Below are positions 1,871 to 56,767 of a stretch of 64,000 nt of DNA, one piece after another. Made by a program: the position numbers and the translations under genes. Numbering within the stretch: the first letter of the stretch is position 1; every line of letters begins with the position of its first letter. The notes below the pieces were generated by a model, which was not told where the DNA came from, searched no databases, and saw only the letters and a program-made list of their open reading frames with translations. The DNA comes from Oopsacas minuta (taxonomy: Eukaryota > Animalia > Porifera): the NCBI GenBank assembly GCA_024704765.1, contig JAKMXF010000188.1, forward strand, positions 669,715-733,714, read 5' to 3'.

Positions 1871-4454
1871 CCAGGGGGTTGAACTTACAAAATAATTCAA
1901 TAATATATTTGCAATATATGTATATTTGTGAATTACATTGTTCTAAATATATCTATATTATAATACTCAAAGGGGTCGTCAATTAGGAGGATAATGGATA
2001 CCTCGAGGCACAATGCGCCGAGTTCATCGCGAAGCGACGAGCCAAAGGCTCGTATTTCTATAATTCTACATTTTTAGGAACAATGAACAATCATTCAGAA
2101 AAACAAAATCAACAAAAAGTATTGAGTATCAAGTTAAGTTTCTGTGATTATCAATACAATTCTCCCATTGACTAATACAACATTGTTGCCTGGACAAGCG
2201 AAAAAAATTTACAAATATAATTCATTATCATATAAATCCACTACAGCCAAGCAGGAACTTACATAATAATGAATTGTATTTCTAAATAGTGTCCACTTGT
2301 CCGGGTTAATAATGTTACGTTAGTCAAAAGGAGAATTGTAATAATAAATTCAAAAAAATTTCTACCAAATTTGTTGAAACACTGGTTAATTTTGTCTCAA
2401 TTAGATATCACAGTAACTGACGTCTCATGCAATATATATATATACAGTTAAACCTGCCTAACGGCCACCTATGTATAACGGTCACCTGCACATAACTGCC
2501 GCCTAAAACAGTCCCCTCCGATTTCCATTATAATGACCTCAGTGTAGCGGCATAAACATAGCCTCTCGGCCACCTGGTCATTGAAATTTTGGAATATGAA
2601 GCTAAAATGTAACATAATTACATAACATAAATACCTAGCAAAATTTGCTAATATTTCACTTTAAACCTCTCAAAACCCTAGGAGGAGTAATGAATAAATC
2701 GGTGAAAACGAATCTATTCTGTTAACCGAAATTTGTATATTCAGTTAGAAAGAGCACATTATGTGATTAGGGCATTAGCCCTTCTTCTAAAAATAAAGTC
2801 ATTCATTTTACTAATAACTGCACTCTCTGACATCTGATTCGTTATGTTCAAATTATCCAAGCTTACGAAATATAAAGATCGCAAATATTCATTCAATCTA
2901 TTCACCCAATTCCAATAATATTTATTCAGTGCTTCTAAATCAGTGAGACTCAGCACCGGTTCACTCACTAACTCTCAGCTCACTGCGGCTGTGGTCCGGT
3001 TGGGAACTGCTTGGTGCCTCAGAACGTGATTCAGAGGGACAATGTGTCATTGGCATATAACAAATTGAATTGATTTCATGGACTTAATTTATGACCTTCT
3101 GGTAGTTCTGGAAATGAAAATATTAAAAGTAAAGAAAAGACTGCTCCATAATTAACACCAATATTATATATATTATATGGCTAAGTCATAGGAATCCGTG
3201 GTTTTAATAAAGTAACCCTTTCCAAATGTTCATGAAATTTTCGATGAGATTAGTGTGGCGGAGTTCGAAAAAGGTTAACAAACACTGATTTAATCTATAC
3301 AAGGTTTACTATACTTCCTAACATTTATCCAATATACAAGATGCAAAATACAAAGAATTAGATCTTCATAAGATAGCATTCAAATTTCCGAGACTTGGTC
3401 GCACGCTTTTCGTATAAATGCAATTTTCCTATTAATACAAGTAGGATTGAATTTCTATTCTTTCACTTCAACTAAATCACGGTTATTAGTACAAGACGCA
3501 AACTGTGAAAACATTCGATTCGCTAATATAATGCATATCGACATTGCATTATGGAAGTACCTTTGAGCCGAGTTATTTCTAATATCAAGGCAATTTATAA
3601 ATTATGGCACCCTCTGGAGTCCTTAGGGTGCTGTCTTGTGAGCAGTCCCTGTATATATCACATGATTAATAATATTTTCACAAATTTGGGTAAAATTAAG
3701 TTCCAACGTTGATTAAGTCAGCCTAAAACAGCACCCCGGCACCCTGTACTCCAAACCCATAAAGAGTATGGTGAACATTGTCCAGGATTTTAATACACAA
3801 GTACAGGATTCTCGAGATTCTGAATAGAAGGATATACAATTATTTGATTAGAGATCAACGCCCACCCAAAGTACGATTGCTACACATCATAATTCATTTT
3901 AGCACCTGCATGCAGATAATACAACATTTGCTTTTTACCTTTCACTTTTTTAAAATATCCAGGAATTTCGTAAGCTGTCTATTAATACAAGCGGCAACCA
4001 TAATAAATGATGTTTCAAGCTATTTCTAATACAAAATTTAACATCCATTTATAGTGATATACATATAGTTGTCAAATAATATTGTGTCCAGGAAAATCAA
4101 GGACTTTTCGATAAAAAGTGATTCATTGACCAGGATAATTTGGACCAAAACAACGATTTTAACTTGCAACACATAAGAAGAAAAACAATATAAGGTAACT
4201 TCAATAAGTTATATTTATCTATAACAAACATAAACACCAATATAATATCACTAATATAATAAAGTCAGAAGCATCAACACAAACTACACATAGAAGTATA
4301 TAACTCATACAGTTTGGCCTAAACAGTCTCTTTAGTATAGAGCTACTATATATTTTTAGTGATTATTCACATTAGTAAAAATGCATACAAGTCAGGCCTA
4401 GAACAGCTACAGTACTAATTATATTGAGTATGTTTGAATTCAGACACATAGTGG

Positions 4455-7400
4455 TTATTGGGGGGGAGGCTGGTACCCGTAAGGAGGGTAATAGGCTCCG
4501 TACATTGGGTAGTAGGGCATTGGCTGAGCTCCGGGTTGTTGTGGTGGGTGTTGTCCGGGCATTACTCCTGGCTGTGGGGGACCCTGTTGAGGCTGAGCAT
4601 AGGGGTAATTAGGGGGAGGAGCTCCGTACACGGGATAGCCAGGGTAGTAGGGGGTAGGATTTGAAGGATGCGGTGTCACTATTGAGCTTGGAGCAGGCTG
4701 TTGAGGGGGAGGAGCTACAGCACGGGGAGGCATAGGCATCTGTTGAGGGGGAGGAGCAGTCGTTGCACCGGCTGGGACGTATGCAGCTGGACGACCTGGA
4801 CCAGAAGGTTTCTTAGAGCTCGACAAAACTTTATCTAAATCTTTACAGAGATCATCTTTCTCTGTCCGTCTGGCAAATGTCAGGTCCCCTACCCTCTGTT
4901 GACACTTGAGTAGCAGATTAGTCAGATCTCCGTAGAACTTAGCTCCCTCCTCTAGGTTTCCGATAAGCTCATTGAACGCTTCGTATCCACTCTGTAGATC
5001 TTTCAGAACCTTCTCTCTGGCAGCTGCACCATCTCCTTGCTGACACTCATTGACAAACTGAGCGTTGACCTGTTTGATCTGCTCAGTGAGAGCTGATCCT
5101 TTCGTCACAGACTCTTGTACTTGCTGTTGTAGCGAGGAATATGTCTCTTGTAGGTGAGTCATAGAGATAGTCTCTTCGTCTACTGAACCCTCAGTCTTGA
5201 GACACTCTAGGAATTTGTTCGCTGGACTAGGTAAGTTGTCTCTGAGAGAAGATTCGATTACCTCTCTCTCTGCCTTCAAGGTTTCAGACTATATAAGAGA
5301 TATTATGAAATATATACTAAGCATAAATACTAAAAAATAATATATTACCTGTTCATATAGCTGCTTTAAGTTTTGTACAACTTGAGCTGAAGAGCCAGAT
5401 CTGCTCGCCGCTCCGCTAGTAGGAATAGAAGCTACTACAGAAGCTTGATCTTGGCTGAGAATTCCAATAGCTTCTCGATTGGCTTGAAACTTGCTATTCA
5501 CAACCTATTACATTGTGACGTCATAAAATATTGGATAAAACATTCATGTGACGTTATGGAGGGATTTGAAATTTTTGGAACTTAAGAAATACATCCAACA
5601 GTACTCGCCGACTACTCGACATTGGAGAAATTTATAGTTGGTGCTTTCTAACGTCGCTTATCTAAACATTAACTAGCATCAAGGTGGATAACATCACAAA
5701 TATACTACTTGTAGATGCAACTCTAATAAGCTTAACCGATTACGACAGAAGTATTACGTTCGTAATGAAAAGGAACACTAAATTTTTACCACCATCTTCA
5801 TCCAATTCCAATACCAAAAACGATATTACAGCACTTTTTTTGGCGTCATAAAATCACACATTTTCCCGGCAGTATTCGGTTAATCCTAATTCAGTAAATC
5901 ACATTGAGTTAAACTTTAAGTAAAGTTAGCTAGGCACATGATATAACCATGGATGGTCCAGATCACGCGAGAATATATAGTATAATAGACAATTAATACA
6001 ATTATCTTGCCTTATCAGCTCCAGTCGCACTTGATAGAATGCCTTGATACTTAGAAATATCAGCTCTGACGTTAACTGTTAACTGAGCTGAGGGCATACG
6101 CGTCCATCTGTCTCCATACTTAGCTCTAACAATAAACAAATTAAAAGATTATGTACAGTAGTATATATCAACTCATATAATGACGTCACTGACCTACATT
6201 CCCCATCCTCTCTGTCTTCCTCGTTCAGAACTCTAACCGTCTCATCCAGGATCTCTTTGTTCCTAATCAGTAGCTCAGGTAGATTCAGTATCATTTCTTC
6301 TAACCTCACCAATCCTCCTTTGCCCCTGACCTCAGCTGATTTGTCTAGCACGGAGGGTGGGGCTCCAGTACCTGAGGTGTCCTCTAAAGCAGCTGGTAGA
6401 TTATATGACGTCAGCAGTGTAGTGAGTTCCTGTGTATTTGCACGCAGTCTTCCTATCTCAGAGTTTACAAGTCCCATCTTCCTCTGCTCATATATCAGTA
6501 GAGCTTCATTCACTTTCAATGGCATCAGCTGAGAGAATAGGTCTACGAAGTTGGATTGAGGGGCGTTGAATGGGAGAGGCTACAATAATGTTATATATCA
6601 AAATATGATATAGTCAAACTTGTCTATATCGAACAAGAAAAGGACTGACCAAAAGTGGCAATTATAGACAAATGTAGTAGTAATTTGAATATAATGGCAG
6701 TTACTATATTCCCTGCAGGATATTTAAGATAATATAGTGTGAGTAGTTAATGATGGGAACCTAACGGACTTGTCAAAGGTGGACTTAATAGAAAGTGACC
6801 GTTATAGACAGGTTTAACGCCATTTATGGACCAAAAAAATTGTGCCCACTGGCCGCGATAAAGAGGTAAATATAATGGGAGAACGGAGGGATTGCTTTTA
6901 AGTGGCCGATAAGTGCAGGTGACCGTTAAGCACGTTTGACTGTAGTAATATTAAATACTAATAAAATTATAGCCTATAAAGATACCTTAGCTAGTGCTGC
7001 CTTTCCTACTGGTTCTATTGTAGCATACTCAGGAACAGGATCACTATATATCATCTTATTATCCTTCAATTCCTTCTCTAGCTTAGTCTTAACTTTAGCC
7101 AGAACACCCTTGATATCATAGAAGCCCTCGCTTCGCTTGACAGCATCTTCTAGACAAGACACTGATTTCTTGAGTCTGGAAATGCTCTCTCCATAATTCT
7201 GATTCTCCAGTGCTACTTTAGCCTGGCTCTCTTCTGCTAGAGCAAGGAATAAACTCTGTTTTGCAGACACAATAGGAATCCATTCTTTCTCCCATTGAGC
7301 TTTGACTGAGCCCTGTTGGAAAGAGGAGAGAGTATCTGCGTAGAGATCACTGGCCTGGTGAGCTAGCTTAGCAATTATCTTCTCCTGCATCTTATCTTTA

Positions 7401-18097: not shown

Positions 18098-20293
18098 ATG
18101 TCTAGTACCTCACACGCGTATCCACAGAGCTCAAGTCCAGCTGATCTGAGTGATGTTCATATTCTGCATAATGCTCAGTTATTAGTAAAAGAACCATGGA
18201 CTGCAAACAATGAAGGTATATCTCGAGGTGCTAAAATAAAATGGCTTGCTCAAATATGTCGTGGTAGAAAATTACAAAAAGATGCATTTATATTGAATCC
18301 TAATTGGCAAGAGGATATTCTCGTAGAGGTGCGTATCCTTCAAAAGCTCCAGCACACTTCTCTCTGCCACTATTTAGGTTTATTCTTCCCACCTGGTTCT
18401 ACCAGTCAGAAGATGCCTTATTTTGTATACGAGAATATTGGGTATCCGTTAAATCTGTACTTATATGAGAACGGGGCCGAACTACAGCCCCGAGTAAAAT
18501 CCGGTATTGCACTTGATATTTGCTCTGGCTTATCTTTCCTACATAGTAGGCAGGTGGTGCATCGTGGTATGTGTCCGGAAGCAGTTAACATTTATCAGAG
18601 CGGAGATTTCATGCGAGCTAAGATTACAGATCTCGGTGTAGCACGGTGTATTTCTGTGACAGCTCAACTTATTGGGAGCAAACATCAACCTTATATACCC
18701 TTAGAAGGTAAGGATCCAGACTATACACTACAACCTTCATGGGATGTGTATTCGTTTGGTATACTAGTTCTAGAATTATTAACTCAAGAAAAACCGCTAG
18801 GAGTAGAGACATTTATCGTGGATCCACAAACAAAGCATCAAGATGAAAAGTTCATTAAAGTTAGTCCGACTGAGCACATCCATATGTTACTTAGAATTGT
18901 TATGAAGGTACCAATGTATGTGCAGTATGGTTATCTAATACAAGAGTGTGTAAAATCTGATTATCAAAATAGGCCACTTACGATGTTTATTTTAGAAAAA
19001 ATACAAGAGATGCCAATTCAACAAGAAATGTTAAAAAACCAACTCAATCAAAGAGGTCCTACCAAAACAAACACTTTACCCTCCCCCTTACAGATTGATA
19101 AACAAGATAACGTTCCTAAATATGACGATCATATGCAGTATACTCTTTTGCAGTCTCCTTCTACTAACGGAACTACCAGTTTTGTGAATCCTATGACAAT
19201 AACAGATAATTTGAATTTATCAATGAACCACAAAATAGCACAAGATAACTTATTGAAACGATCTCTTTCAGAAGATGTAAGTGAATCTGTTGATAAGAGT
19301 ATTGGTCAGATTAGAAGGATGTCTGCACATTCTCAGGAGCATGATCATGTAGTTAACGAAGCAGAAGATTTCATATATTTATCACAATATCTAAGAGATA
19401 ATAGACATAGAAAATTACCGACCACGTTTGGACGTTGTATAGCATTAATCCACGACAACAAATTAGTATTATATGAGATAACTCAGGGAGAAATGTATGT
19501 CCTGGAGCCGAAAACGCAACAATGGAATGTTTTAGCCGACAAAATGCCCGTACGTCTGGGCGGGATCTGTGTGTATGGATCTAGGTTATATGTATTAGGC
19601 GGGTTTATAAAATCTAAAGGTGGATATGAAAATGCTGAGCAAAACAAACATATTTTCTGGTGTAAAATGACTGATAAAGATAATAAAGTTGTTCGATCAG
19701 ACCTTCCTGATACGTTATACTGCCATAAAGTGCCCTCTGTTGCTGTCTATAATGACTTCATACTTGTTATAGGAGGTGATACAAAGCGCAATTCTATTGA
19801 GGTCTACGACCCTAGACATGACCATTGGTACTTAAACACGTATATACCAAGCGACTCCAGAGGCAGTTTGGTTATAATGTCAGCTTGTGTTCGCGAAAAT
19901 TTATTATATCTAGCTCTGACTGATGAAAGGTCTCCTCCTACGTATATGTACAGTAGTTGTCTAGACACACTGTCTCAAGTTAAGAATAACACTCTAACAT
20001 GGAACAGATTCAATTCGCGAATACCTACTTGTAGTCCTAGACTAATTAGTTCAAAGAGTAAGATGTATGCTGTGGGAGGTGGTGGAGATTTCTCACGAAC
20101 TTCCTATGCTAAAGATGTGTATGGTTGGGATGAAGATGAGGATACCTGGGTGAAGACGACCTCTCTGAAGCAGGAGAGGAAATGCTGTGGAGTGTGCACT
20201 TTATTTGATGGGTCTATCTATGTTGCAGGGGGGAATTCGTACATGGAAACTCCTGATTACTTAGATATACAAGAGCTAGCGTTAATTCATTAA
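18098..20293 (+). CDS. Intronless protein-kinase-like (probable pseudokinase) + C-terminal Kelch beta-propeller protein
   Basis: Single ORF; the first in-frame ATG is at 18098. A kinase-like domain shows a subdomain IX motif DVYSFGILVLELLT and a DFG-like DLGVAR. However, HRD is replaced by HRG (VVHRGMCPEAVNIY) and no clear GxGxxG or VAIK lysine is present. The C-terminal half has repeated Kelch signatures (YVLGG, VIGGD, YAVGGGG, YVAGG, plus W/Y spacing). Confidence 0.65.
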   Translation: MSSTSHAYPQSSSPADLSDVHILHNAQLLVKEPWTANNEGISRGAKIKWLAQICRGRKLQKDAFILNPNWQEDILVEVRILQKLQHTSLCHYLGLFFPPGSTSQKMPYFVYENIGYPLNLYLYENGAELQPRVKSGIALDICSGLSFLHSRQVVHRGMCPEAVNIYQSGDFMRAKITDLGVARCISVTAQLIGSKHQPYIPLEGKDPDYTLQPSWDVYSFGILVLELLTQEKPLGVETFIVDPQTKHQDEKFIKVSPTEHIHMLLRIVMKVPMYVQYGYLIQECVKSDYQNRPLTMFILEKIQEMPIQQEMLKNQLNQRGPTKTNTLPSPLQIDKQDNVPKYDDHMQYTLLQSPSTNGTTSFVNPMTITDNLNLSMNHKIAQDNLLKRSLSEDVSESVDKSIGQIRRMSAHSQEHDHVVNEAEDFIYLSQYLRDNRHRKLPTTFGRCIALIHDNKLVLYEITQGEMYVLEPKTQQWNVLADKMPVRLGGICVYGSRLYVLGGFIKSKGGYENAEQNKHIFWCKMTDKDNKVVRSDLPDTLYCHKVPSVAVYNDFILVIGGDTKRNSIEVYDPRHDHWYLNTYIPSDSRGSLVIMSACVRENLLYLALTDERSPPTYMYSSCLDTLSQVKNNTLTWNRFNSRIPTCSPRLISSKSKMYAVGGGGDFSRTSYAKDVYGWDEDEDTWVKTTSLKQERKCCGVCTLFDGSIYVAGGNSYMETPDYLDIQELALIH

Positions 20294-22407: not shown

Positions 22408-23664
22408 ATGTTTGGTTCTACTACACAAACGATCTATTTTGATACTTCCAAGAAAGAACAATTTTCTCTGACTAATGGTTTGAAGATTCTATCTCAGAAA
22501 CTGAAATCTAAATGGAGACTTCTCTCTTGGAAAGATGATATCTCTATGCTCAGCTTAACCCCTGGACAGGTGTATATAATCCCTGGTCCGTGTGAGAAGT
22601 TCTCAGCTGGAGAGATCAAAGCAATCGCTCAGTTTTTAGAATCTGGAGGTAACCTGATAGTACTCCTGGGGGAGGGAGGGGAGAACAAGTATGACACCAA
22701 TATTAACTTCCTGCTGGAGGAGTATGGTATTATGGTAAATTCAGACTCTGTAATTCGTACTTCTTATTTCAAATATTTTCATCCTAAAGAAGTGTTGATA
22801 ACTGGTGGCCTGCTTAACCGCGAGATAACAAAGGCATCCCTATCACTTCACCATAGTAATGATGGTAACGAGCTCACAATGAATCTGCTATATCCGTTTG
22901 GTTCAACAGTGAGTATTAGAAAACCTGCTATACCTATAGTATCCACTGGAAACGCTTCTTACCCTCTCAACAGACCTGTGTGTGCATTTGCTAAGGCTGG
23001 TAAAGGAAAGATAGCAGTGCTAGGCTCAGTTGCATTTATTAGTGACAATTATATAGAGAAGGAAGATAACTTTCTTTTGCTAGAGATTATACTGGAATGG
23101 CTTACAGGGAATAGTATCAACATTAATCAGATTGATGCAGATGATCCTGATGTATCTGACTACTACTATCTCCCTTACACTTGTAAGCTAGCTAACAGAG
23201 TATACTTCTCATTGCAAGAGTGTGATGAGGTACCACGTGACTTCACTCGTCTCTACAATCACTCTCTATACACATTAGACTCTAGTGTCCTGCCGAATGT
23301 TTTAGAAGCTTACAAAGAGTTCCAAATCAAGCATGAGCCTCTCCAGCTCATCTCTCCTCAATTCGAAGCTCCCCTACCCTCTCTAAACGCAGCTGTATTC
23401 CTCCCTGAGCTGAATGAGAGTGCTCCTCCCCTGTTGGAGCTATACGACCTAGATGATCACTTCTCCTCTCCAAGGATACGATTAGCTCAGCTGACTAACA
23501 AATGTACTGATACAGACCTGGATTACTTTATCCATGAGGCTGCTAAGATATTGGGCGTGGACGATAAGGTATCCTCACAAGAACGGACTTCTAAGCTATA
23601 TCTGGAGTTAATTCTATCTCAGTTGATGGAGTTTAAGTTATCTTCTATTGATGAGCAGTATTAG
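22408..23664 (+). CDS. IFT52: Intraflagellar transport protein 52 (IFT-B complex), intronless
   Basis: 418-aa ORF. It is near-collinear with IFT52 along its length: GNLIVLLGEGGENKYDTNINFLLEEYGIMVNSDSVIRTSYFKYFHPKEVLITGGLLNREI, ...AVLGS..FISDNYIEKEDN..., LTGNSININQIDADDPDVSDYYYLPYT, HEPLQLISPQFEAPLPSLNAAVF, RLAQLTNKCTDTDLDYFIHEAAKILGV. Confidence 0.9.
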   Translation: MFGSTTQTIYFDTSKKEQFSLTNGLKILSQKLKSKWRLLSWKDDISMLSLTPGQVYIIPGPCEKFSAGEIKAIAQFLESGGNLIVLLGEGGENKYDTNINFLLEEYGIMVNSDSVIRTSYFKYFHPKEVLITGGLLNREITKASLSLHHSNDGNELTMNLLYPFGSTVSIRKPAIPIVSTGNASYPLNRPVCAFAKAGKGKIAVLGSVAFISDNYIEKEDNFLLLEIILEWLTGNSININQIDADDPDVSDYYYLPYTCKLANRVYFSLQECDEVPRDFTRLYNHSLYTLDSSVLPNVLEAYKEFQIKHEPLQLISPQFEAPLPSLNAAVFLPELNESAPPLLELYDLDDHFSSPRIRLAQLTNKCTDTDLDYFIHEAAKILGVDDKVSSQERTSKLYLELILSQLMEFKLSSIDEQY

Positions 23665-25727: not shown

Positions 25728-28700
25728 ATGCAACTCTACTATCGCTTCCTGTTGATATCATGTCTACTGGGTACAACCTTTGGCATGCAGTTGTTGGGAG
25801 CTAACCGCTGCACCTGGGGTCCCAGCTGGTGGTGTATTAACGAAACTACTGCTAATGACTGCGGCGCAACACAACATTGTATTGATAATGTATGGCAGAT
25901 TCCAGCAACTAAGAAACAACAATCCAAGGCAATGGAAAACTTCCTTAAAAATCCTTTAGGTTTGCTACCAATCGGAATCATACCACAGCCCGAACATAGC
26001 GTAAGGTTAACTCAGGACGCGTGTGACACCTGTTTGAATCGAGTACTAGAAATTAAAATTCTTATCAAGGATAATGCTACTAGTGAGGGATTCGAGAAAC
26101 TTCTTATAAATGAATGCATTAAATGGTTTAACAACGAGGACTCTTGTTACGAAATAATATCACATTCCAGTGAAGCTATATTCAGCATTATCAAACGCTC
26201 ATCTCCTGAACAGGTGTGTGACTTGGTATTACAATGTGGCAACACATGTAGTGAATGTAAGAGCGGCGTAGTTGTTGTTGAGAAGGCTCTTAGTCAGAAT
26301 TTAACTGATCAGGAAATAGTATACTTATTTATTGAGTTTTGTGCTAAGCTAGGTCCATACTCAGGTGAGTGTAAAGCCGCGGTTACTTCACGAATGGATC
26401 TTGTTATTGACGATTTGATTGACTTCCTGCAAAATGATCCTTGTGGTAGCCTAGGTGCTTGTGACTCATCTCTTCAACTAGTTTCTTCTGATGTTGAATG
26501 TACACTTTGTCTGTTTATTTGGGAATATGTTGTACACGAAGTTTCTCTGAACTCAACTGAAGAAGAGATCAAGAATGCATTGAAAGAGATATGCCAATAT
26601 CTAGGCAAGTTGAAGGATATCTGCAGTAACTTTGTCGATACTAACGTAGGTGATATAATTGTTGACATATTGAATAATGAATCACCACACAAATTCTGCA
26701 CACAAATTAAAGCTTGTAATAGCTCCAGTACTTTCGCATTATCTCCTCTACCTAAGCAAACTACATCAGCTCTACTCTGCAGTGCTCTAGCTAGCATATT
26801 CCAATCATTATTCAGCACAGATCTAATTGTACGATCTTTAGTTCAGGTGTTCTATATGACATGTAACATGCTGCCTGATGACACAGCTGTGGAGAATTGT
26901 CAGTCCTTCGTTATGCTCTACGTAGCTGGTATCTTACAGATAATCAATGCTGCTCTCCCCGTATCATATCTATGTATTGCCTTCCTGGGGAATAACCCTA
27001 ACGCTATTTCCAATATATATGATAATTCCATAGAATTCAGCCCAGCAGTTCACGGAGAAATAGAATGCGCTATTTGTGAGCTAGTACTAGAAATAGTGAG
27101 AATGGATATAGATACTAACAAATCTGTTAAGGACATACAAAATGACGTCAACATGACATGTCAGTTGCTTCCTGAAGGGACAATCAGAAAGGATTGTGAA
27201 TCAGGTGTTCTATTAGTCCCAGTTGTGTTAGATCTGCTAGCTCATAATTGTGTTCCGCATGAAATTTGCTATGTCCTTACTGCATGTCCAAATAACTCCT
27301 CTATAGAGACAACAACACTTGCTAAGCATGCCACACAGGTTGAGAGTTTTGATGTAACTTGTTTCGCCTGTAAAACGGGTGTTCAGCTGACGTTCTCATT
27401 CCTCGCCAGCAACCACACTGTGCAAGAAATGATATATATTATAAACGGTCTCTGTACTATAGTTAGTCCTAATTATGGATGTGAGGGGTTTCTCCAGGAT
27501 CTACTACCTCCACTATTGAATTATCTGCAGCAACAGTTCTCTCCTGAAGAGGTGTGTATAGGTATTGGGATGTGTCAGAATGATGAGGTAGGAGGCTACA
27601 CCGTGGATAAGAATGCTCCTATTGAAGAGAGTGAAGATATAGGATGTCTTGTATGTAGTGCATTAGCTACTTTACTTGATGATTACACTGGGTCTTATAG
27701 TGAAAATACAATAATTAGCGTTGCTAGTGCTTTGTGTAATCAGTTCGGTGAGTTTAGTGATGAGTGTAAAACTATCGTAGCGAATAACTTACCTAATATT
27801 ATCGAAAAACTGAGAGCTGGAGAATCTCCACAACAACTATGTGCTGAGGTTAAACTATGTCAGGCTGTTACATCTCGTGTCTCTGCCTCGCTAATGAAGG
27901 TTATAGCTGATAAAGATGAGGATCAGTGTGACACGTGTTTGGATGGTATTGACAGTATAAAGAGCATGTTAGCTAATAAGGGAGAAGATTATACTAAAGA
28001 CTATCTAATACAACAATGTATTGCTGCGTATTCTAAGATTATCTGTAATGAAGCTATTTCTCATTTGATTAAGATTATTCAGACCGGAGAGGATCCTTCT
28101 GATATCTGCTCTCAGCTAAATTTATGCAGTCTTGAGCCTGGATTGGAAAGTTATATTGATTGTGATACTTGTTTGAAATACGGGAAAGAATTAGAAAACA
28201 GAATAACTGATGAGACTTCTCAAGACGATTTTGATGATATTTTGTTCAATGTTTGCAGGCAGAATGCGAGTAAAACGATTTGTAAAATAGTTGTTAAACG
28301 GTTCTCTCAAGAACTCTTCAAACTAATGGTTACTCAGGGACAGAGCTACGAGCAAATATGTAAAGAAATGGCTGATTGTTCTGTTAGCTCTCCCTCTTTT
28401 GAAGTGAGTAGTAATACTATGTACTGTGCCGAATGCAAGTTTATTATAATGATAACTAAGCAAGCTATTTCTAAAACCAGTGAAGAAGATATTGAAAAGT
28501 ATTTAGATACCCTTTGTAATATGCTTGGAGAAAATCAGTATGAACAATGTAAGTATTTACTCGACTCTTTTATCAGCAAACTTTACGAAATTCTCAATGG
28601 TGATATGAGTGTTACTGAATTATGTGAAGAAATCAATGCTTGTTCCTCGCAACAGGTTACTTTACAGAAAACCTACTTACAACTCTGGGAGGAGTTGCAG

Positions 28701-28976
28701 CAGTCTCCCAGCACTGATTGTATCCTCTGCACTTGGATTAGTCAGTCTATACATCCACAGCTAATTGATATGTATTCGCATGAATCTTTGAAGTACAAAC
28801 TAGCTTCCAAATGCGCTAAACTACCTTTACATAATCAAGCTAGTTGCGAGGAGTTTGTTGAGAACAATTATTTCATTTCTGCTCTTAAGTCCAACTCCAA
28901 TTCTCCTATCTGTCAAGCTATTAATATCTGTCAGGGCAAGTCTAGAACTCCGGCTGGGTTTTCTCTTTTCATTTAA
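25728..28976 (+). CDS. Prosaposin-like secreted protein: signal peptide, N-terminal saposin-A-type domain and about 10 saposin-B-type domains; intronless
   Basis: 1082-aa ORF starting MQLYYRFLLISCLLGTTFG (signal-peptide-like). A SapA-like CTWGPSWWCINETTANDCGATQHC follows. Ten repeats each open with CxxC and carry the six-Cys saposin-B spacing (CDTCL, CSECK, CTLCL, CAICE, CFACK, CLVCS, CDTCL, CDTCL, CAECK, CILCT), each followed by ...C...C...C...C. Confidence 0.82.
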   Translation: MQLYYRFLLISCLLGTTFGMQLLGANRCTWGPSWWCINETTANDCGATQHCIDNVWQIPATKKQQSKAMENFLKNPLGLLPIGIIPQPEHSVRLTQDACDTCLNRVLEIKILIKDNATSEGFEKLLINECIKWFNNEDSCYEIISHSSEAIFSIIKRSSPEQVCDLVLQCGNTCSECKSGVVVVEKALSQNLTDQEIVYLFIEFCAKLGPYSGECKAAVTSRMDLVIDDLIDFLQNDPCGSLGACDSSLQLVSSDVECTLCLFIWEYVVHEVSLNSTEEEIKNALKEICQYLGKLKDICSNFVDTNVGDIIVDILNNESPHKFCTQIKACNSSSTFALSPLPKQTTSALLCSALASIFQSLFSTDLIVRSLVQVFYMTCNMLPDDTAVENCQSFVMLYVAGILQIINAALPVSYLCIAFLGNNPNAISNIYDNSIEFSPAVHGEIECAICELVLEIVRMDIDTNKSVKDIQNDVNMTCQLLPEGTIRKDCESGVLLVPVVLDLLAHNCVPHEICYVLTACPNNSSIETTTLAKHATQVESFDVTCFACKTGVQLTFSFLASNHTVQEMIYIINGLCTIVSPNYGCEGFLQDLLPPLLNYLQQQFSPEEVCIGIGMCQNDEVGGYTVDKNAPIEESEDIGCLVCSALATLLDDYTGSYSENTIISVASALCNQFGEFSDECKTIVANNLPNIIEKLRAGESPQQLCAEVKLCQAVTSRVSASLMKVIADKDEDQCDTCLDGIDSIKSMLANKGEDYTKDYLIQQCIAAYSKIICNEAISHLIKIIQTGEDPSDICSQLNLCSLEPGLESYIDCDTCLKYGKELENRITDETSQDDFDDILFNVCRQNASKTICKIVVKRFSQELFKLMVTQGQSYEQICKEMADCSVSSPSFEVSSNTMYCAECKFIIMITKQAISKTSEEDIEKYLDTLCNMLGENQYEQCKYLLDSFISKLYEILNGDMSVTELCEEINACSSQQVTLQKTYLQLWEELQQSPSTDCILCTWISQSIHPQLIDMYSHESLKYKLASKCAKLPLHNQASCEEFVENNYFISALKSNSNSPICQAINICQGKSRTPAGFSLFI

Positions 28977-30186: not shown

Positions 30187-30757
30187 GAAACAAACGTAAT
30201 CCAATATACTGTAAACAAACGTAATCCAATATACTGTAAACAAACGTAATCCAATATACTGTAAACAAACGTAATCCAATATACTGTAAACAAACGTAAT
30301 CCAATATACTGTAAACAAACGTAATCCAATATACTGTAAACAAACGTAATCCAATATACTGTATACAAACGTAATCCAATATACTGTAAACAAACGTAAT
30401 CCAATATACTGTAAACAAACGTAATCCAATATACTGTAAACAAACGTAATCCAATATACTGTAAACAAACGTAATCCAATATACTGTATACAAACGTAAT
30501 CCAATATACTGTAAACAAACGTAATCCAATATACTGTAAACAAACGTAATCCAATATACTGTAAACAAACGTAATCCAATATACTGTAAACAAACGTAAT
30601 CCAATATACTGTAAACAAACGTAATCCAATATACTGTAAACAAACGTAATCCAATATACTGTAAACAAACGTAATCCAATATACTGTAAACAAACGTAAT
30701 CCAATATACTGTAAACAAACGTAATCCAATATACTGTATACAAACGTAATCCAATAT
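30187..30757. repeat. Minisatellite: 25-bp unit AAACAAACGTAATCCAATATACTGT in about 23 tandem copies
   Basis: Direct reading of the sequence. Copies are near-identical, with a recurring A-to-T variant (tgtatacaaacg) at copies spaced 5 and 10 units apart (30361, 30486, 30736). The three overlapping minus-strand ORFs here are frame artefacts. Confidence 0.95.
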
Positions 30758-41779: not shown

Positions 41780-43321
41780 TCTCTCACTAAATACAGAATT
41801 TAGAATTTTGACTAGAACTCATTTCTTTTCTCTATAGTGATTCTTATGCACAAAGTACAAGTACATGTAGTAATCAGTGTACATCTTTGTATTCTGTTGA
41901 ACGAATGAATTCAAATAAGGTTATTCTGTGATATTAATATAGTGGAACCTCCAAAAGCGGGGTAAGTAAACTTCAACTAACATCAATTTTTATCCAAATG
42001 GACTTCTGAACAAGGAAGCAGGGAAAGATATTTGGTACCCAATCAGGCTATCTACAGTACCCGCTTCGGAAGGTCCCACTGTATTTATTTTTATCGGTTA
42101 ATTCATGAAATGATGTACGTACACACTTTGGAGTTCCATAACTTAAATCATGTACCCTGCTAGTGGTAATAGGCCCAGAGCAGTGGCGGATACTTTTGAA
42201 TTATTGGGGGTGCTCAACAAATTAACCAAAATTGATTTCCTATGAGAGCACTAAATTGTATTTATCGAGAATACCTATAGCTATCTTTTCAACTTGATCA
42301 CAAATGTATACTTTGTGCACAATTATCAAACTTAAATAAAACTTTTCTTCGCCCACACTTTCACCGAAAATATTGGCCAGTGGCACTAGGGGGTGGTCAA
42401 GCACCCCCTAGTGCCACTGGCCATGACGTAGGAAATTAAACGGGTATTTTGGTCACATGTTTGTTCTTGGTTTGTGTCAGTGTTACTATACAACCATCAG
42501 TGCATCTTGCTACTCAACCATAAGAGTAGCAGACATTATGTATTATTATATCCCTTTTAAACATCCTTTTCCAAACAATTTTTGCTTACATGCGATAATT
42601 GCTTCTTGAGGGATGGAAATGTGCAGTTAATCGCTTTTGATCACTAAATTCTGGTGATTATTTTGGACATTACTGCAATATTCATTCATATCTATCAATC
42701 AATGTATTGTCAATTCATACATTCAGTAATTAGTTATGGGATTACTTATATGTCGGCTAGTTGACAAATAAGTAATTATGGCCGACTTATAAGGATTTAG
42801 CCGCATATAAGTAATCCCATTAGTTATTAGTTTTCTTCTTTTGAAACATGCTGAGTGGAGCTGACTTAACAACAGAAGAACACCTTGTCTTTCATTTGCT
42901 CCTGGTAAGCCAGATCCTGGACCTCTCCTGCTCTTAGCTCGGCGAGATTAAAATACACATATAAGTACAGTACTCCCGTCTGACTATTTATCCTCAATTC
43001 TTGAGGTTTTGTGCATGATGAAGTGTTGCATTTATGGGAATTTAGTATTAACTGTTTCCATGCAACATGCTTTGTTGAGAAGCACCCAAACCTTTTATAA
43101 CAATACCTATTAACTTTTGATGTAACAAAGCAACTAAATGATCGAAAGTGACCAGTTTAACCTTCCACGCTTAGTTGTATAAATTAGTTGATTAAATTAT
43201 CTAAGATAAGTAAGATTGCTTTGTGAATTTGTGAAAGCATCAAGTTACCATAAGGGATGATACCAAGGGATTGTGAATAAACTGATTGTACCTTATTTGT
43301 TTGTAGTATTTGTGTTTTAAA

Positions 43322-44623
43322 ATGGTCCCAGACAACTCAAATGATTTTTTGTATATCAAGAAAGTTAAAGAAACCCAAGATCTGTATTATGGGTACAATA
43401 GGGAATATTTAGCTCAGAACTTAACAGAAATGGAAGAAGAATTTATTGTTTGTAAGAAGTGTACAGGAATAATGCGAGAAGCTTCTATTTGTAGAGGAGA
43501 TATAACTTGTTTGATTTGTAGTGAAACTCCCGACAAACTCAATCCAGTTAAAGCTGTGCAAAGTTCTATCTCAAAATTAGTGATAAAATGTCCTCTCCTC
43601 AGAGACTGTCATTGGAAGGGACAACTGTCTGAAGCTGAAGAACATATGGAAAATTGTATACATATATTAATTCAATGTAAATATTGTAAAGAAATATTTG
43701 CCAGAAAAGAGAGTGACGAGCATAACGTTAACATATGTCCAATGCGGTTAATCAATTGTCGAAACTGCAATAAAAGGGGCAAAGCTGAGCACCTGGAGGA
43801 ACATTATGAAGTTTGCTTACATTTGTCAATTTCTTGTCCTAATAATTGTGGAGGAAAGCTCCTCAGAAGTGAATTATCTATACACAAAAGGAAATGTGAA
43901 TTAGAAACGATTAGCTGTCCCTATACAGAGTATGGCTGTGAAACAGGCTTAATGATGAGAAAAGATCTCATAGCTCACAAGAAGCAGTATATGGTGGAAC
44001 ATACCGACATGAGTTTATTGAAGATTGAAAAACTTAGCTCTCAAGTGGATAAACTCCAAATTGAAAACACGGATTTACAGAGAGAAAAGAAAGAGATGGA
44101 ATGGGCAGGAAAGGCAATGAAGCAACTTGATGGAGTTGAGTGGAAAATAGAGAATTTGGATGAATTAACTGAGAAACAGACATTTATAGAAGGACCAACA
44201 TTTTATGTCAACAATTACAGACTGAGAATATATTGTAAATATATTGTTGGTGGATTTGGTGAGAAAATCTTACAATTCTATCTCAAGAGGATTGAAGGAG
44301 AATTTGATGACGATTTAGGACAAGCTTGTATATGCCATTACAGAGTGATTATTGTGAATACACAAAATTACACTAAATCACATTATAAAGAAGGAAGAAT
44401 GAATTTTCAGCTCACCTTTAAAATGAAGAGTTCTAACATATTTACTGCATCACCTCTGTCGCACAATAGCTATCTTATAGCTAATAATTCTTTGCTTCTA
44501 CGATTCTACTTTGACATCAACACTACTGAACCTTTGACAAGTTTGACACCTAAAAAGTCTGCAAATTCACAGGATTATGCTACAAAGGTACATCCTACTG
44601 AGAAGAAGGATCCTTTTCTTTAA
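43322..44623 (+). CDS. TRAF-family protein (Cys/His TRAF-type zinc fingers, coiled coil, C-terminal MATH/TRAF-C domain), intronless
   Basis: Single ORF; first ATG at 43322. Repeated C-x-C/H-x-C zinc-finger spacing appears (CKKCTG...CLIC..., CPLLRDCHW...H..NC, CKYCKEIF...H..NIC, CRNCNKRG..H..H...C, CPNNCGG...H...C, CPYTEYGC). A coiled coil follows (LLKIEKLSSQVDKLQIENTDLQREKKEME). The MATH-domain start WKIENLDELTEKQTFIEGPTFYVNNYRLRIYCKY is present. Confidence 0.78.
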   Translation: MVPDNSNDFLYIKKVKETQDLYYGYNREYLAQNLTEMEEEFIVCKKCTGIMREASICRGDITCLICSETPDKLNPVKAVQSSISKLVIKCPLLRDCHWKGQLSEAEEHMENCIHILIQCKYCKEIFARKESDEHNVNICPMRLINCRNCNKRGKAEHLEEHYEVCLHLSISCPNNCGGKLLRSELSIHKRKCELETISCPYTEYGCETGLMMRKDLIAHKKQYMVEHTDMSLLKIEKLSSQVDKLQIENTDLQREKKEMEWAGKAMKQLDGVEWKIENLDELTEKQTFIEGPTFYVNNYRLRIYCKYIVGGFGEKILQFYLKRIEGEFDDDLGQACICHYRVIIVNTQNYTKSHYKEGRMNFQLTFKMKSSNIFTASPLSHNSYLIANNSLLLRFYFDINTTEPLTSLTPKKSANSQDYATKVHPTEKKDPFL

Positions 44624-45411: not shown

Positions 45412-47469
45412 TTAGAATATTTGTAGACAGTTGTCGACCTTCATGTCACCATATGTGATAATGCCAGTTTTTTCTATGAATATGCAAGAGGGACGGAATG
45501 TTTGACACAGCCCATGTCCTGTCTCACAAACTGTTTCTATGAATTTCCCATCCAAGTCGAAAACTTTGATGGAATTGTCCCAGAAATCACATATGTAGAT
45601 TCTCACTTCATCTGTGTTAGGATTTTGGAACAGGTTGAAGTTATATGCTCCTGCTATCTGATCCTCCGTGAGTATGGACTTTATGAGTTTTCCTTGTAGA
45701 GAGAACATTTGGAGAGGAGAGGGAGATCCTGTGAAGAGACATATGACGTAATCATTAGTAGTCTTCATGTCCTGTAGCCATGGATACCTGTTCGTTATCT
45801 TTGTATGCAGGATTGGTTTTAGTGGATATTCTTGATCTTTACCGAGAGGATCTAGTTGCATTCGTATTAGACTCGGCTTGAGAGTCCCCACATACAAATG
45901 CTTACTGTTAGAGGTTGTGCAACAAGCCTGTGGTATTTGGAAAGTATGTTCAAGTTTCATGTCAGATATAAGCTGACTATCTTTCCATGTGAAGCTGAAT
46001 CGTGATAGCGAACTACTTGTAGAATAGCACACGAATACAAACTGATTGAAGTTGGCCAATGAGGCTGGAGTAACCAGTGAATGAGGATGATGATACCATT
46101 CTGTAGCTGCAAGATCAATTGCTCTGTAGCGTGAGACTGTATCCCCGTATCTATCCCCTACTATTACGTTTTCTTTAATAACGATTACACTAGTGGGCGT
46201 GTCTAATTGGTGACCCTCAACTCCACCTCTATCAACACCAGATGCTACAGGAATGTTTCTCTCTGCTTTGGGTGGAGCTACTTGCATGGGCTTGTTATCA
46301 GTGTCGATCACAATTGAAGGAATGTTTATCCTGTTGGTGTAATAGTGACGGATCTTTCTAAGTACTATATCATATATTTGCTTTAATTCCTTATCGTCTT
46401 CATTCTTCCTGACAAGATATTCTAGCGACCTAGCGTCTCTGTACAGGAAAGAAAGTTCCTTGAATGTGAAAATCACATCCTTTTCAATTCTTTCCTGTAC
46501 AGTCTCTATCACTCTGCATTTCCTTTCTATATCATCTGCATTCCTAGTTTCCAATTCGTCTCTAGCTATCGCATACTCCATCTTAAGTCTGTTAAGCCTC
46601 AGGTCATACTCCTGACGTGTGATACCCCCGGGAAGTAGGTCTCTCTTGGACGGTTTTATAGGTTTCATGTCTTTCTCTATTTCAGGATCTACATAGAAAA
46701 TGAATTCACCCTCTATTACGTGTGTCAATCCCTCTTTCATAACTTTTGAACACCAATGCTCTGGAATGGGATAATTTCTCATCTTTAAGATCTCTTTCTT
46801 CAGTCTCAGTCTTAAAGATTCGTATCTGTTTACAATTATACTCTCGATTTGTTTGGGAAGTTCAATGCTTAGTTGGTTCTGAATTTTATAAATCTTTTTC
46901 TCAGCTGTCACCTTCCACATAATGAGACCGTTTAGGGAGTACAGAGAAGGTTCTGCTAGAGTTCTCTCTATATAGAAGAGGCTCTCTTTGTATTCGATAG
47001 GGAGCCAATTATTGATAACTAGTAGAGTTATTTTCTTTAAATGATGGTTGTATCGCTCCGTGAGGGAATTTCTGGATGGGACAGGGACTATTTTACTTTT
47101 TATTTTAGTATCAAATTCATTGTAAAAATGTGGTAGCTTGTTTAGAATCTTTTCGCCTAACTTTTGGTTGAATGGGACTATCATCCGTTCCATCTTCATG
47201 ACAACAGTTGATATCCATTCAATCATTTTGTACTCCTTGATTATGACGCAGAAGCGATCCTTTACAGAGTCACGCATTTCTGTGGACAGTATTGAAGCCT
47301 CTTTGGAGTATAGCGTTTCCATTTCCAACTCAAATCCTTTAATCAATTTTCGAATTTCGCTAACTTCGATTGCTTCCAAGTCAATGGACCTAATTTCCTT
47401 CAACCTATCCTCATACCTTTTGAACATCTCAGAATTTGATGGTGTTACCTGGTTCAGGTTTGTTGCCAT
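45412..47469 (-). CDS. Coiled-coil protein with degenerate NHL-like C-terminal repeats; a paralog of the gene at 1-744; intronless
   Basis: 685-aa ORF. It shares the MATN... start and the motif PV(A/V)SG(V)..GGVEG with the gene at 1-744. The C-terminus has an NHL-like YICDFWDNSIKVFDLDGKFIETV (compare YVADKSNNRVQTFNEYGKYLFKF). The long N-terminus is coiled-coil-like. Confidence 0.6.
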   Translation of the reverse strand: MATNLNQVTPSNSEMFKRYEDRLKEIRSIDLEAIEVSEIRKLIKGFELEMETLYSKEASILSTEMRDSVKDRFCVIIKEYKMIEWISTVVMKMERMIVPFNQKLGEKILNKLPHFYNEFDTKIKSKIVPVPSRNSLTERYNHHLKKITLLVINNWLPIEYKESLFYIERTLAEPSLYSLNGLIMWKVTAEKKIYKIQNQLSIELPKQIESIIVNRYESLRLRLKKEILKMRNYPIPEHWCSKVMKEGLTHVIEGEFIFYVDPEIEKDMKPIKPSKRDLLPGGITRQEYDLRLNRLKMEYAIARDELETRNADDIERKCRVIETVQERIEKDVIFTFKELSFLYRDARSLEYLVRKNEDDKELKQIYDIVLRKIRHYYTNRINIPSIVIDTDNKPMQVAPPKAERNIPVASGVDRGGVEGHQLDTPTSVIVIKENVIVGDRYGDTVSRYRAIDLAATEWYHHPHSLVTPASLANFNQFVFVCYSTSSSLSRFSFTWKDSQLISDMKLEHTFQIPQACCTTSNSKHLYVGTLKPSLIRMQLDPLGKDQEYPLKPILHTKITNRYPWLQDMKTTNDYVICLFTGSPSPLQMFSLQGKLIKSILTEDQIAGAYNFNLFQNPNTDEVRIYICDFWDNSIKVFDLDGKFIETVCETGHGLCQTFRPSCIFIEKTGIITYGDMKVDNCLQIF

Positions 47470-55000: not shown

Positions 55001-56767
55001 ACACATACAGTCAACTCCCGATATGTATCAAAACTCAAGGGACGGGGCGGCGATAATTATAATCAATATCCAACATCCAGTAACGCGATCCCTCAGGGGA
55101 ATTAAAAATCCGTTCGAAATAGCGAATGTTTGAGTTAACTGTTTACAAAAGTACTAAAGTTACAACCAAGGGAAAAATATTGTTTCGAGTTAAAGAATGT
55201 TAACTGTACTTCGATATTAGCAGAGTTCGATATAACCGATGAAACATGGTATTTGGACGGTTTGGGACCATATTTGTACAATTTTAGACTTGGATATATC
55301 AGTGTTCGATATAGCGGGAGTTGACAATATGTGTACATATCTTAAATGCATTGATAAACACTGATACTGCTTATTTCATTATACGTGGTACGCTTATGAT
55401 TGTGTTGCACTAATCAGCTGTGCAATTACTATTTACATTGGACTCTCGTTAAATATCATGGATTGTTAAAAACCGTACTCCTTATACAGAGTAGTAACAA
55501 CCAAATTAATATTCATTGTAAAAGCATTGATAAACTTGAGAATGTAAGTATTACCCATCTAATATTTACAAGAGTTCAATGTAATTGGCTTACTTTCTGT
55601 CAGTATTATCATCTGGTATTATCATGTAGATGTCCACACAACACAGCAATACAAGTGTATGACTATGTGAACAAGACATCTCGCGTGTTATTCGGGCCTG
55701 ATCTGGTAATGCTACAACCACACGAGAACTTCAACGTACTCAGTCTAAGTGCAGGTAAACCTAAGATGGAAGGTGCTCTCAAGTCTCTCTGTCTAATGCT
55801 AGGACCTGATTACATTACTGATAGTATTATCGTAGAGACATCTGATCACGCTAGACTATCTATATTCTACTCAGTTAATAATCACTTCGAGTACGATAGG
55901 AATAACCCAGAACAAGTCGAGAGTCTGTTTGCACTGCCAGACTTCATTGGATTTGCAGCTAGACACATTGCATCTAGGGTACGAGCGTCTGTGTCTCAAA
56001 TTAATTTTGATAACTTCCACAAACACTCAGCTGCAATTGTGAGTCGTTCTGTGTTTGGAGTAGACGCAGAAGGAAATATCGGACAGTATTACAAGTTCCC
56101 AGCTAATAACTTGGTTATAACAAACATTGATATTCGTAATATTGAGCCAGAGGACAAACACATGAGAGACAGTTTATTCAAATCTGTTACCATGGCTATT
56201 GAAATAGCGATTAACTCTACAGAAGCAGCTGCTCAACATGACGCAGAGCGACTGGAGCAGAAAGCAAGAGGTTTGTTAGAGAGGCAGAAACTAACGAATG
56301 AGCAGGAGAAGGAGAAGGCACGTAAACAGCTGTTACTGTTACAAGCAGAATGTGCTGCTATTGAATCATCAGGGATGGCTAAGGCTGAAGCACAAGCTCT
56401 GGCCGAGAAGATGCTTATTGAGTGCAAGAGCGAGATCGAGGTTAGTAAGCTCAAAGCTGAAGCTAATGAGATAGAGCTAGATTCTAAAATTAGCTTTATC
56501 AAGAAGAGTCAAGCTGCTGAGATTAAATACCAGACTGAGTTATTTGTCCTAGACCGTGATAAGACTAAATCTATGGCTGAGATAGAAATTAACAAATTTG
56601 GCTGTATGGTGGATTCGTTAGGCTCTGGTACTTTAAGGGCTATTGGACAGGCAGGCCCCACTACTCAGAAAATGCTCGAAAACACTCTTGGTTACAAGAA
56701 ACTACTCTCTAGTGGTACTACAAACCCTCTTACTTTGTTCTCTGAAGGGAAAGCTGCCTTTTCGTAA
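49083..56767 (+). CDS. MVP: Major vault protein; 5 exons
   Basis: Exons 49083-49469, 50816-51111, 51307-51647, 51927-52296, 55630-56767. Total 2532 nt, or 843 aa, with consistent phases. The match to MVP is collinear: IRPLHYVHILNRNNNVTSLDLGPK; AGDIWQLKGPLTYTPQPEV; GEEWLVT...LGPHQFCVILNPIGEDGHNKLGRRLVVKG; GEKWLILGPCEYIP; CPHNTAIQVYDY...VLFGPDL..VLSLSAGKPK; the shoulder and cap-helix region QHDAERLEQKARGLLERQKL; and the C-terminal coiled coil. Start codon taken as the first ATG, though an upstream exon is not excluded. Confidence 0.88.

Follow-up and report, generated by a model that had tools for sequence, protein, structure and literature searches.

In the tyrosine kinase-like (TKL) group of protein kinases, IRAK4 and IRAK1 are active whereas IRAK3 (IRAK-M) and IRAK2 are pseudokinases, and the JH2 domain of the JAK proteins functions in allosteric regulation and not in catalysis. 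The combination of a pseudokinase with a protein-interaction domain is a well-known design. The gene described here lies at positions 18,098 to 20,293 of a 64,000-nucleotide stretch of the genome of the glass sponge Oopsacas minuta (assembly GCA_024704765.1, contig JAKMXF010000188.1, positions 669,715 to 733,714 of the forward strand; the whole stretch is referred to below as the window), and encodes a protein of 731 amino acids (aa) in which a degenerate kinase-like domain is followed by a linker and a Kelch beta-propeller. Sequence comparison shows the protein to be a divergent, degenerate member of a so far undescribed colinear kinase-Kelch family. It is this family, hidden by misleading names, that is new here.

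No paper on a sponge kinase-Kelch family came out of literature searches, which returned only Kelch motifs in protist kinases. These are kinases of Entamoeba histolytica that carry Kelch motifs in the same polypeptide (PMC2939887) and tyrosine kinases of unicellular holozoans (PMC4342544). The likeness to these proteins is by description only; they are described as tyrosine-kinase or receptor-type proteins of unrelated lineages and are not reported as pseudokinases.

Several solved proteins invite closer comparison. The best kinase in the PDB for the family profile is IRAK4 (8e-47), followed by BRI1, CTR1, TNNI3K and B-Raf, so that the family belongs to the TKL group. It contains, as the IRAKs do, both intact paralogues and paralogues that lack the catalytic Asp, and by analogy this suggests that dead members may modulate or scaffold the signaling of live ones. 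In contrast to the IRAKs, however, kinase-Kelch proteins have no N-terminal death domain (no match to the Death model) and possess a C-terminal Kelch propeller, and identity to IRAK4 does not exceed what is usual between families, with the likeness confined to the kinase domain; no orthology is claimed and the protein does not belong to the IRAK family. The nearest structural neighbors of the modeled kinase-like domain are the JH2 domains of TYK2 and JAK2, and JAK1 JH2 has HGN in place of HRD, as does a sister clade of paralogues described below. JH2 adjoins an active JH1 in the same chain, together with FERM and SH2 domains, whereas the O. minuta protein has just one kinase-like domain, joined to a propeller. 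The resemblance reflects degeneration that is convergent within the TK/TKL fold. LRRK2, in which a TKL kinase domain precedes a C-terminal beta-propeller, was the sole solved protein that Foldseek aligned over both domains (~750–800 alignment columns), but with a global root mean square deviation of ~25 Å it shares the domain order only. Its propeller is a seven-blade WD40 domain, it is catalytically active, and its ARM, ANK, LRR and ROC-COR domains are absent from the O. minuta protein.

The gene and the kinase-Kelch family

The features of the gene, in window coordinates and with the evidence for each in brackets, are as follows.

18098–20293, + strand: complete single-exon coding sequence (CDS) of the pseudokinase-Kelch protein, 731 codons plus TAA (open reading frame (ORF) list, protein identity, ratio of nonsynonymous to synonymous substitution rates (dN/dS))
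18143–19051, + strand: pseudokinase domain with TKL/IRAK-like fold, aa 16–318 (Pfam, PDB sequence matches, AlphaFold2 (AF2) model, Foldseek, dN/dS)
18215–18241, + strand: vestigial Gly-rich loop GISRGAKIK, aa 40–48 (family alignments; predicted local distance difference test (pLDDT) below 50 at aa 32–42)
18257–18271, + strand: beta3 remnant CRGRK, aa 54–58 (family alignment; identical in all three orthologues)
18326–18328, + strand: alphaC Glu77, kept (aligns with the JAK1 alphaC Glu and the Glu of family RFxxEC)
18560–18589, + strand: degenerate catalytic loop HRGMCPEAVN, aa 155–164 (aligned to family HRDLSSNNVL)
18629–18637, + strand: DLG, equivalent to DFG, aa 178–180, metal-binding Asp178 kept (family alignment)
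18743–18784, + strand: subdomain IX, DVYSFGILVLELLT, aa 216–229 (aligned to JAK1 DVWSFG; Asp216 and Gly221 invariant in the family)
19055–19354, + strand: disordered linker, aa 320–419 (pLDDT below 50; dN/dS)
19364–19420, + strand: pre-propeller helix and segment EDFIYLSQYLRDNRHRKLP, aa 423–441 (model helix at aa 418–434; residues 427–441 identical in four species)
19412–20281, + strand: six-bladed Kelch beta-propeller, aa 439–728 (Pfam, PDB, AF2, Foldseek, blade motifs, dN/dS)

The CDS begins at the first ATG (18098) and ends with TAA at 20291–20293, with an in-frame stop ~30 codons 5′ of the ATG. Over all 731 aa the translation matches, at 100% identity, an O. minuta protein in NCBI (P0001, "Serine/threonine-protein kinase PLK4-like"), and thus the public gene model is likewise single-exon. 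A reading made earlier from the letters and ORFs of the window (hereafter the sequence-only reading) had described the gene as an intronless fusion in one exon, and the single 731-codon ORF agrees with this. The lack of introns is, however, unremarkable, because O. minuta genes have a mean of 1.59 introns each (PMC10280926) and the adjoining genes for IFT52 and the saposin-like protein each consist of a single ORF too.

Three close relatives came from a word-indexed homology search: two are full-length, at 87 and 83% identity, and the other, at 71%, is a fourth, partial orthologue. The full-length relatives are regarded as orthologues because the same downstream neighbors, IFT52 and then a saposin-repeat protein, follow the gene in the window and at both relatives, which lie in other large eukaryotic assemblies (L001, L002). 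The same search gave 125–129 bits (E ~1e-31) to a 1252-aa protein of the plant Rutidosis leptorrhynchoides (P0005), far above any other non-family kinase; this protein presumably has repeated kinase domains.

The 731-codon ORF is uninterrupted in three assemblies, and by the Nei-Gojobori method the full CDS has a dN/dS of 0.03–0.06 (~0.04 overall) against the two syntenic orthologues, with synonymous sites saturated (dS above 1). An ORF of this length at dN/dS ~0.04 is far beyond chance. By part, dN/dS is 0.012–0.034 for the kinase-like domain, 0.029–0.045 for the propeller and 0.16–0.19 for the linker, as against ~0.03 in the domains. Purifying selection on both folded domains is thereby shown to have been strong ever since at least three glass-sponge genomes diverged, and the low dN/dS together with the kept synteny excludes both sequencing error and pseudogene decay. 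It could be argued that the gene has no function, being the remnant of a kinase gene in decay or else an artefact of assembly or annotation, as decay would likewise produce the loss of catalytic residues, and the 66 bits of the kinase Pfam match fall far short of the best aligned family member (Pkinase E as low as 1.5e-43). With the ORF intact in three assemblies, synteny kept, dN/dS low and a further orthologue at 71% identity, this explanation is very improbable and can be considered effectively refuted.

The word-indexed search, with three close relatives only, suggested an orphan architecture, and the sequence-only reading had called kinase-Kelch architectures rare. The first was overturned, and the second proved misleading, when an exhaustive HMMER scan was made over 1.84 billion cluster representatives (clusters at 50% identity). 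Both kinase and Kelch matches were present in 33 of the 149 top representatives, with the N-to-C order shared by 32, and at least 32 further clusters besides that of the O. minuta gene have the kinase-linker-Kelch layout, so that this gene is not a unique fusion. Many of the matches are proteins of 600–800 aa that are colinear across both halves, as in P0329 (731 aa), where query residues 77–723 correspond to 81–728. Every one of the 41 aligned members, close cluster mates included, had Pfam matches to kinase and Kelch models only, and BTB, BACK, F-box, SOCS, death and polo-box domains gave no Pfam match in any of them at E ≤ 0.01. The family is further marked by a Cys before the beta3 Lys and by the motifs RHPNIVQYLG, YMPPE and D.FS.G, from which Cys54, His86, Pro87, Asp216 and Gly221 are conserved in O. 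minuta. The colinear layout and these motifs together place the O. minuta protein within the family.

Most members are catalytically complete, with LGxGxYGxV, CAAK, the alphaC Glu, HRDLSSNNVL, DFG or DLG, and YMPPE. The HRD Asp has been lost in seven of 33 clusters, the query's own counted, where the motif reads HRG, HGN, HCN or HRN. In a neighbor-joining tree the Oopsacas clade pairs with a clade bearing HGN and DAG (P0256, P0391, P0392), a pairing in which long-branch attraction is possible. One protein of that clade, the Asp-less P0392 (HGN/DAG, omega ~0.05), comes from the same assembly as the orthologue P0003, and is a paralogue in the same glass-sponge genome because the two share that assembly at similar coverage.

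Two further observations concern the genomic setting of family members. The HGN/DAG paralogue P0391 is encoded as an identical protein on two contigs (L005 and L006, at 3001–5361 in each) of assembly ERZ25072730, both copies with a DDE-transposase fragment upstream and RuvBL/TIP49 downstream, so that they represent haplotigs or else a segmental duplication of recent date. Directly upstream of the intact kinase-Kelch gene P0289, on the same strand, is a kinase-only ORF of 317 aa (L010, 696–1649), which may be a tandem family fragment or part of a split gene.

Most members are on contigs without an organism name, and those that bear one belong to O. minuta and the demosponge Halichondria panicea only, the latter with one "OSR1-like" protein (P0277) and two adjoining loci named "uncharacterized." The family is probably enriched in sponges. 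The product names of P0001 ("PLK4-like") and P0277 ("OSR1-like") are misleading, as both are TKL/IRAK-like kinase-Kelch proteins without polo-box or OSR1 features. That the O. minuta gene is an orthologue of PLK4, the centriole-duplication kinase, is hardly credible: the automatic product name is all that speaks for it, whereas a polo-box match is lacking, a Kelch propeller forms the C-terminus, the kinase-like domain is catalytically degenerate, and PLK4 is not among the best 60 PDB sequence matches (JAK, IRAK4, RIPK1, CTR1). Domain content and nearest kinase relatives thus rule out this identity. Correcting the name matters because the presence or absence of PLK4 has been discussed for the centriole biology of O. 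minuta (PMC10280926).

Kinase-like domain, linker and propeller

The sequence-only reading held that the kinase-like domain keeps the hallmarks of the fold, and profile searches bear this out. The Pfam model PK_Tyr_Ser-Thr (PF07714) matches aa 71–296 with an E-value of 4.2e-18 and 66 bits (cut-off 23.1), over profile positions 45–252 of 258, and Pkinase (PF00069) matches with 3.1e-17 and 63.3 bits (cut-off 31.7). The N-lobe strands are evidently too divergent to align, because both matches start only at profile position 42–45. A PDB sequence search with the N-terminal half matched JAK1, IRAK4, RIPK1 and CTR1. In the AF2 model, built on the 41-sequence family alignment (mean pLDDT 73.6), the kinase domain is bilobal and mostly at pLDDT 75–95, with low confidence in the Gly-loop region (aa 32–42), and Foldseek aligned it with the JH2 pseudokinase domains of TYK2 and JAK2, RAF and RIPK1 in the PDB (template modeling (TM) score ~0.75, normalized to the target; probability 1.00). 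The profile matches and the bilobal fold place the domain in the eukaryotic protein kinase superfamily. The motifs quoted earlier, HRG, DLG and DVYSFGILVLELLT, are all found where they had been reported.

The catalytic losses were read against an alignment of 38 family sequences. The Gly-rich loop, GISRGA-----KIK against LGxGxYGxVxKA in the family, has a five-residue deletion and does not conform to GxGxxG. In beta3, ICRGRK aligns with the family CAAK, such that Arg57 takes the Lys position with Lys58 adjoining, a placement in which a register shift of one residue is possible; Cys54, before the Lys position, is nearly invariant in the family. The earlier statement that no Gly-loop or VAIK lysine can be recognized therefore holds in that both are non-canonical, but remnants of each become recognizable once family members are aligned. 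In the catalytic loop Gly157 takes the place of the HRD Asp (HRG at aa 155–157, nucleotides 18560–18568), and Ala162 that of the catalytic Asn, at a position where at least 90% of the family have Asn. HMMER's own pairing of Asn164 with the catalytic Asn is unsupported, since this residue is Ser in both orthologues (N/S/S across the three sequences) and is not conserved, whereas HRGMCPEAV is identical in all three. DLG and the entire N-lobe are likewise identical or near-identical across the three. Asp178 of the DLG is invariant across the 41 family members, and DLG also occurs in members that are otherwise intact. On the evidence of this alignment, four canonical catalytic elements are shown to be lost, namely the tip of the Gly-loop, the beta3 Lys, the HRD Asp and the catalytic Asn, with Glu77 and Asp178 kept.

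The loss of the catalytic Asp, which the sequence-only reading had pointed out, is thus confirmed, and the HRG that takes its place is identical in the two syntenic orthologues. As these come from independent assemblies, a sequencing error as the source of HRG is ruled out and was rejected. Neither of the two outcomes that the reading had named as telling against it, the want of a kinase-fold match and an intact HRD/VAIK masked by sequencing error, was borne out.

A different view of these residues would be that the protein is still an active kinase with a non-canonical mechanism, like the exceptions of the WNK, CASK and haspin type, with Lys58 or the beta2 residues Lys46/Lys48 in place of the beta3 Lys and another residue as the base. 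Asp178 (the DFG Asp) and Glu77 are kept, Lys58 adjoins the beta3 position, and conservation in the active-site region equals that elsewhere in the domain, all of which agrees with such a view. Conservation of this strength is, however, equally expected of a structural pseudokinase, and four independent catalytic elements are gone together, including the phosphate-clamping tip of the Gly-loop (by deletion), Asp157 and Asn162, while Asn164, the candidate substitute, is Ser in both orthologues. Retained activity is therefore considered unlikely.

The linker is disordered in the model and contains two basophilic Ser motifs, KRSLSE (aa 387–392) and RRMSA (aa 406–410), with RRLS/RKLS and KRALS/RRSIT in the orthologues. 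From the motifs we infer that KRSLS and RRMS are putative regulatory phosphosites.

The sequence-only reading had put the Kelch domain at five to six blades; the domain itself is upheld, and the count is settled at six by the blade motifs (FGRCIALI, YVLGG, LVIGG, YLALTD, YAVGG and YVAGG), the model and Foldseek. Four Kelch models of Pfam exceed their cut-offs within aa 490–715 (Kelch_1, 40.3 bits against 20.1; Kelch_6, 31.9 against 25.3; Kelch_2, 23.7 against 21.3; Kelch_3, 23.2 against 22). A PDB sequence search with the C-terminal half matched the SAKe6 designed six-blade Kelch proteins and KLHL17. The model shows a confident all-beta domain at aa 439–728, for which designed six-blade Kelch proteins were the best Foldseek matches in the PDB (TM 0.65–0.68). 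The profiles above threshold and the closed six-blade form identify a Kelch beta-propeller.

This type of propeller, with the same kind of repeat, is shared with the BTB-Kelch (KLHL) and KLHDC proteins. The best natural propellers in the PDB for the family profile are KLHL12 and KLHL20, and the closest natural Kelch propellers to the protein are those of KLHL12, KLHL20, KLHL17 and IVNS1ABP, which are adaptors of Cullin-RING ligase (CRL) 3. It might thus be proposed that the protein is a substrate adaptor of a Cullin-RING ligase, with the Kelch domain recruiting substrates to the Cullin and the pseudokinase as an accessory. The O. minuta protein differs from these adaptors, however, in lacking BTB and BACK domains as well as any C-terminal degron or BC-box region. 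That no match to BTB, BACK, F-box or SOCS was obtained in any of the 41 family members does not agree with a BTB-Kelch protein. Only three residues (up to aa 731) follow the last propeller strand, which ends at aa 728, leaving no room for a C-terminal BC-box/Cul2-box, so that it also does not qualify as a CRL2 adaptor of the KLHDC type. With ~25–30% identity, the similarity to KLHL propellers is a generic likeness of repeats, and a role as Cullin adaptor is regarded as quite improbable.

Proposed role

As judged from its domain matches the protein is shown to be of cytosolic type, with no Pfam match beyond the kinase and Kelch models. We consider it rather probable that it is a non-catalytic signaling component, in which the propeller binds a partner and the pseudokinase is a docking/allosteric module. 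The sequence-only reading had proposed a role as scaffold or substrate adaptor; a non-catalytic scaffold is indeed the most reasonable reading, but the Cullin adaptor is unsupported, given that there is no BTB, BACK or F-box domain and nothing past the propeller.

In this signaling role the kinase-like domain is predicted from its sequence to transfer phosphate no longer. A specific partner or ligand would be recognized by the face of the propeller, with docking or allostery as the task of the pseudokinase domain. It may associate with a TKL kinase that is active, perhaps a paralogue of the same family, or may act as a conformational switch, in parallel to IRAK3/IRAK2, KSR and JAK JH2, which act for their active relatives. 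The flexible linker, with its two conserved RxxS/RRxS motifs, would be a likely point of regulation by basophilic kinases.

Several points weigh against a non-catalytic component of this kind. The inactivity is itself a prediction, and with Asp178, Glu77 and a Lys one position past the beta3 site all kept, nucleotide binding or an atypical activity is possible. The intact family members that were traced (P0375, P0297 and P0289) are all outside the glass-sponge assemblies of the orthologues. The AF2 model, moreover, gives no confident packing between the domains (predicted TM score 0.47).

A bolder proposal is offered tentatively, and we regard it as doubtful. The family would be an undescribed, sponge-restricted family of cytosolic IRAK-like TKL kinases, with the Kelch domain as its sensing or docking module, in which repeated conversion to pseudokinases has given rise to dedicated regulators. 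In glass sponges two or more dead paralogues of ancient origin (HRG/DLG and HGN/DAG) would have been retained as non-catalytic core parts of a lineage-specific pathway, for example in innate immunity or the sensing of symbionts in the syncytial tissue.

Neighboring genes and wider meaning

The following features were identified in the rest of the window.

4455–5279, − strand: exon-sized ORF with a match to ALIX (V-domain), evidently part of a multi-exon gene (Pfam)
22408–23664, + strand: IFT52 gene, intronless, with all three IFT52 Pfam domains (Pfam; order conserved in L001 and L002)
25728–28976, + strand: saposin-repeat protein of 1082 aa (Pfam; order conserved in L001 and L002)
43310–44623, + strand: TRAF-like ORF (zf-TRAF and MATH), 23 kb downstream of the pseudokinase gene (Pfam)
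55400–56767, + strand: exon-sized ORF with a match to major vault protein (Vault_3 and shoulder), evidently part of a multi-exon gene (Pfam)
58634–60442, + strand: exon-sized ORF with a match to HOOK, an ordinary eukaryotic gene (Pfam)

In bilaterians IRAK and TRAF6 act together, and the presence of a TRAF-like ORF near an IRAK-like pseudokinase gene may be a coincidence. A minisatellite at 30188–30757, with a 25-bp unit (AAACAAACGTAATCCAATATACTGT) in 22.8 copies that are 99% identical, gives rise to three overlapping phantom ORFs of ~200 aa, in all three minus-strand frames. An ORF of 685 aa with an ATG start (45412–47469, − strand) had no Pfam match at E ≤ 0.001 and is a candidate protein-coding gene.

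No existing concept is overturned by these findings. Members of the kinase-Kelch family, publicly misnamed as "PLK4-like," "OSR1-like" or "uncharacterized," occur in no fewer than two sponge classes and fall into some 30 divergent clusters, among which catalysis has been lost repeatedly. With this family the kinome innovation of early animals gains a lineage-specific module, and the family's live and dead paralogues form a natural series in which the origin of pseudokinases may be studied.

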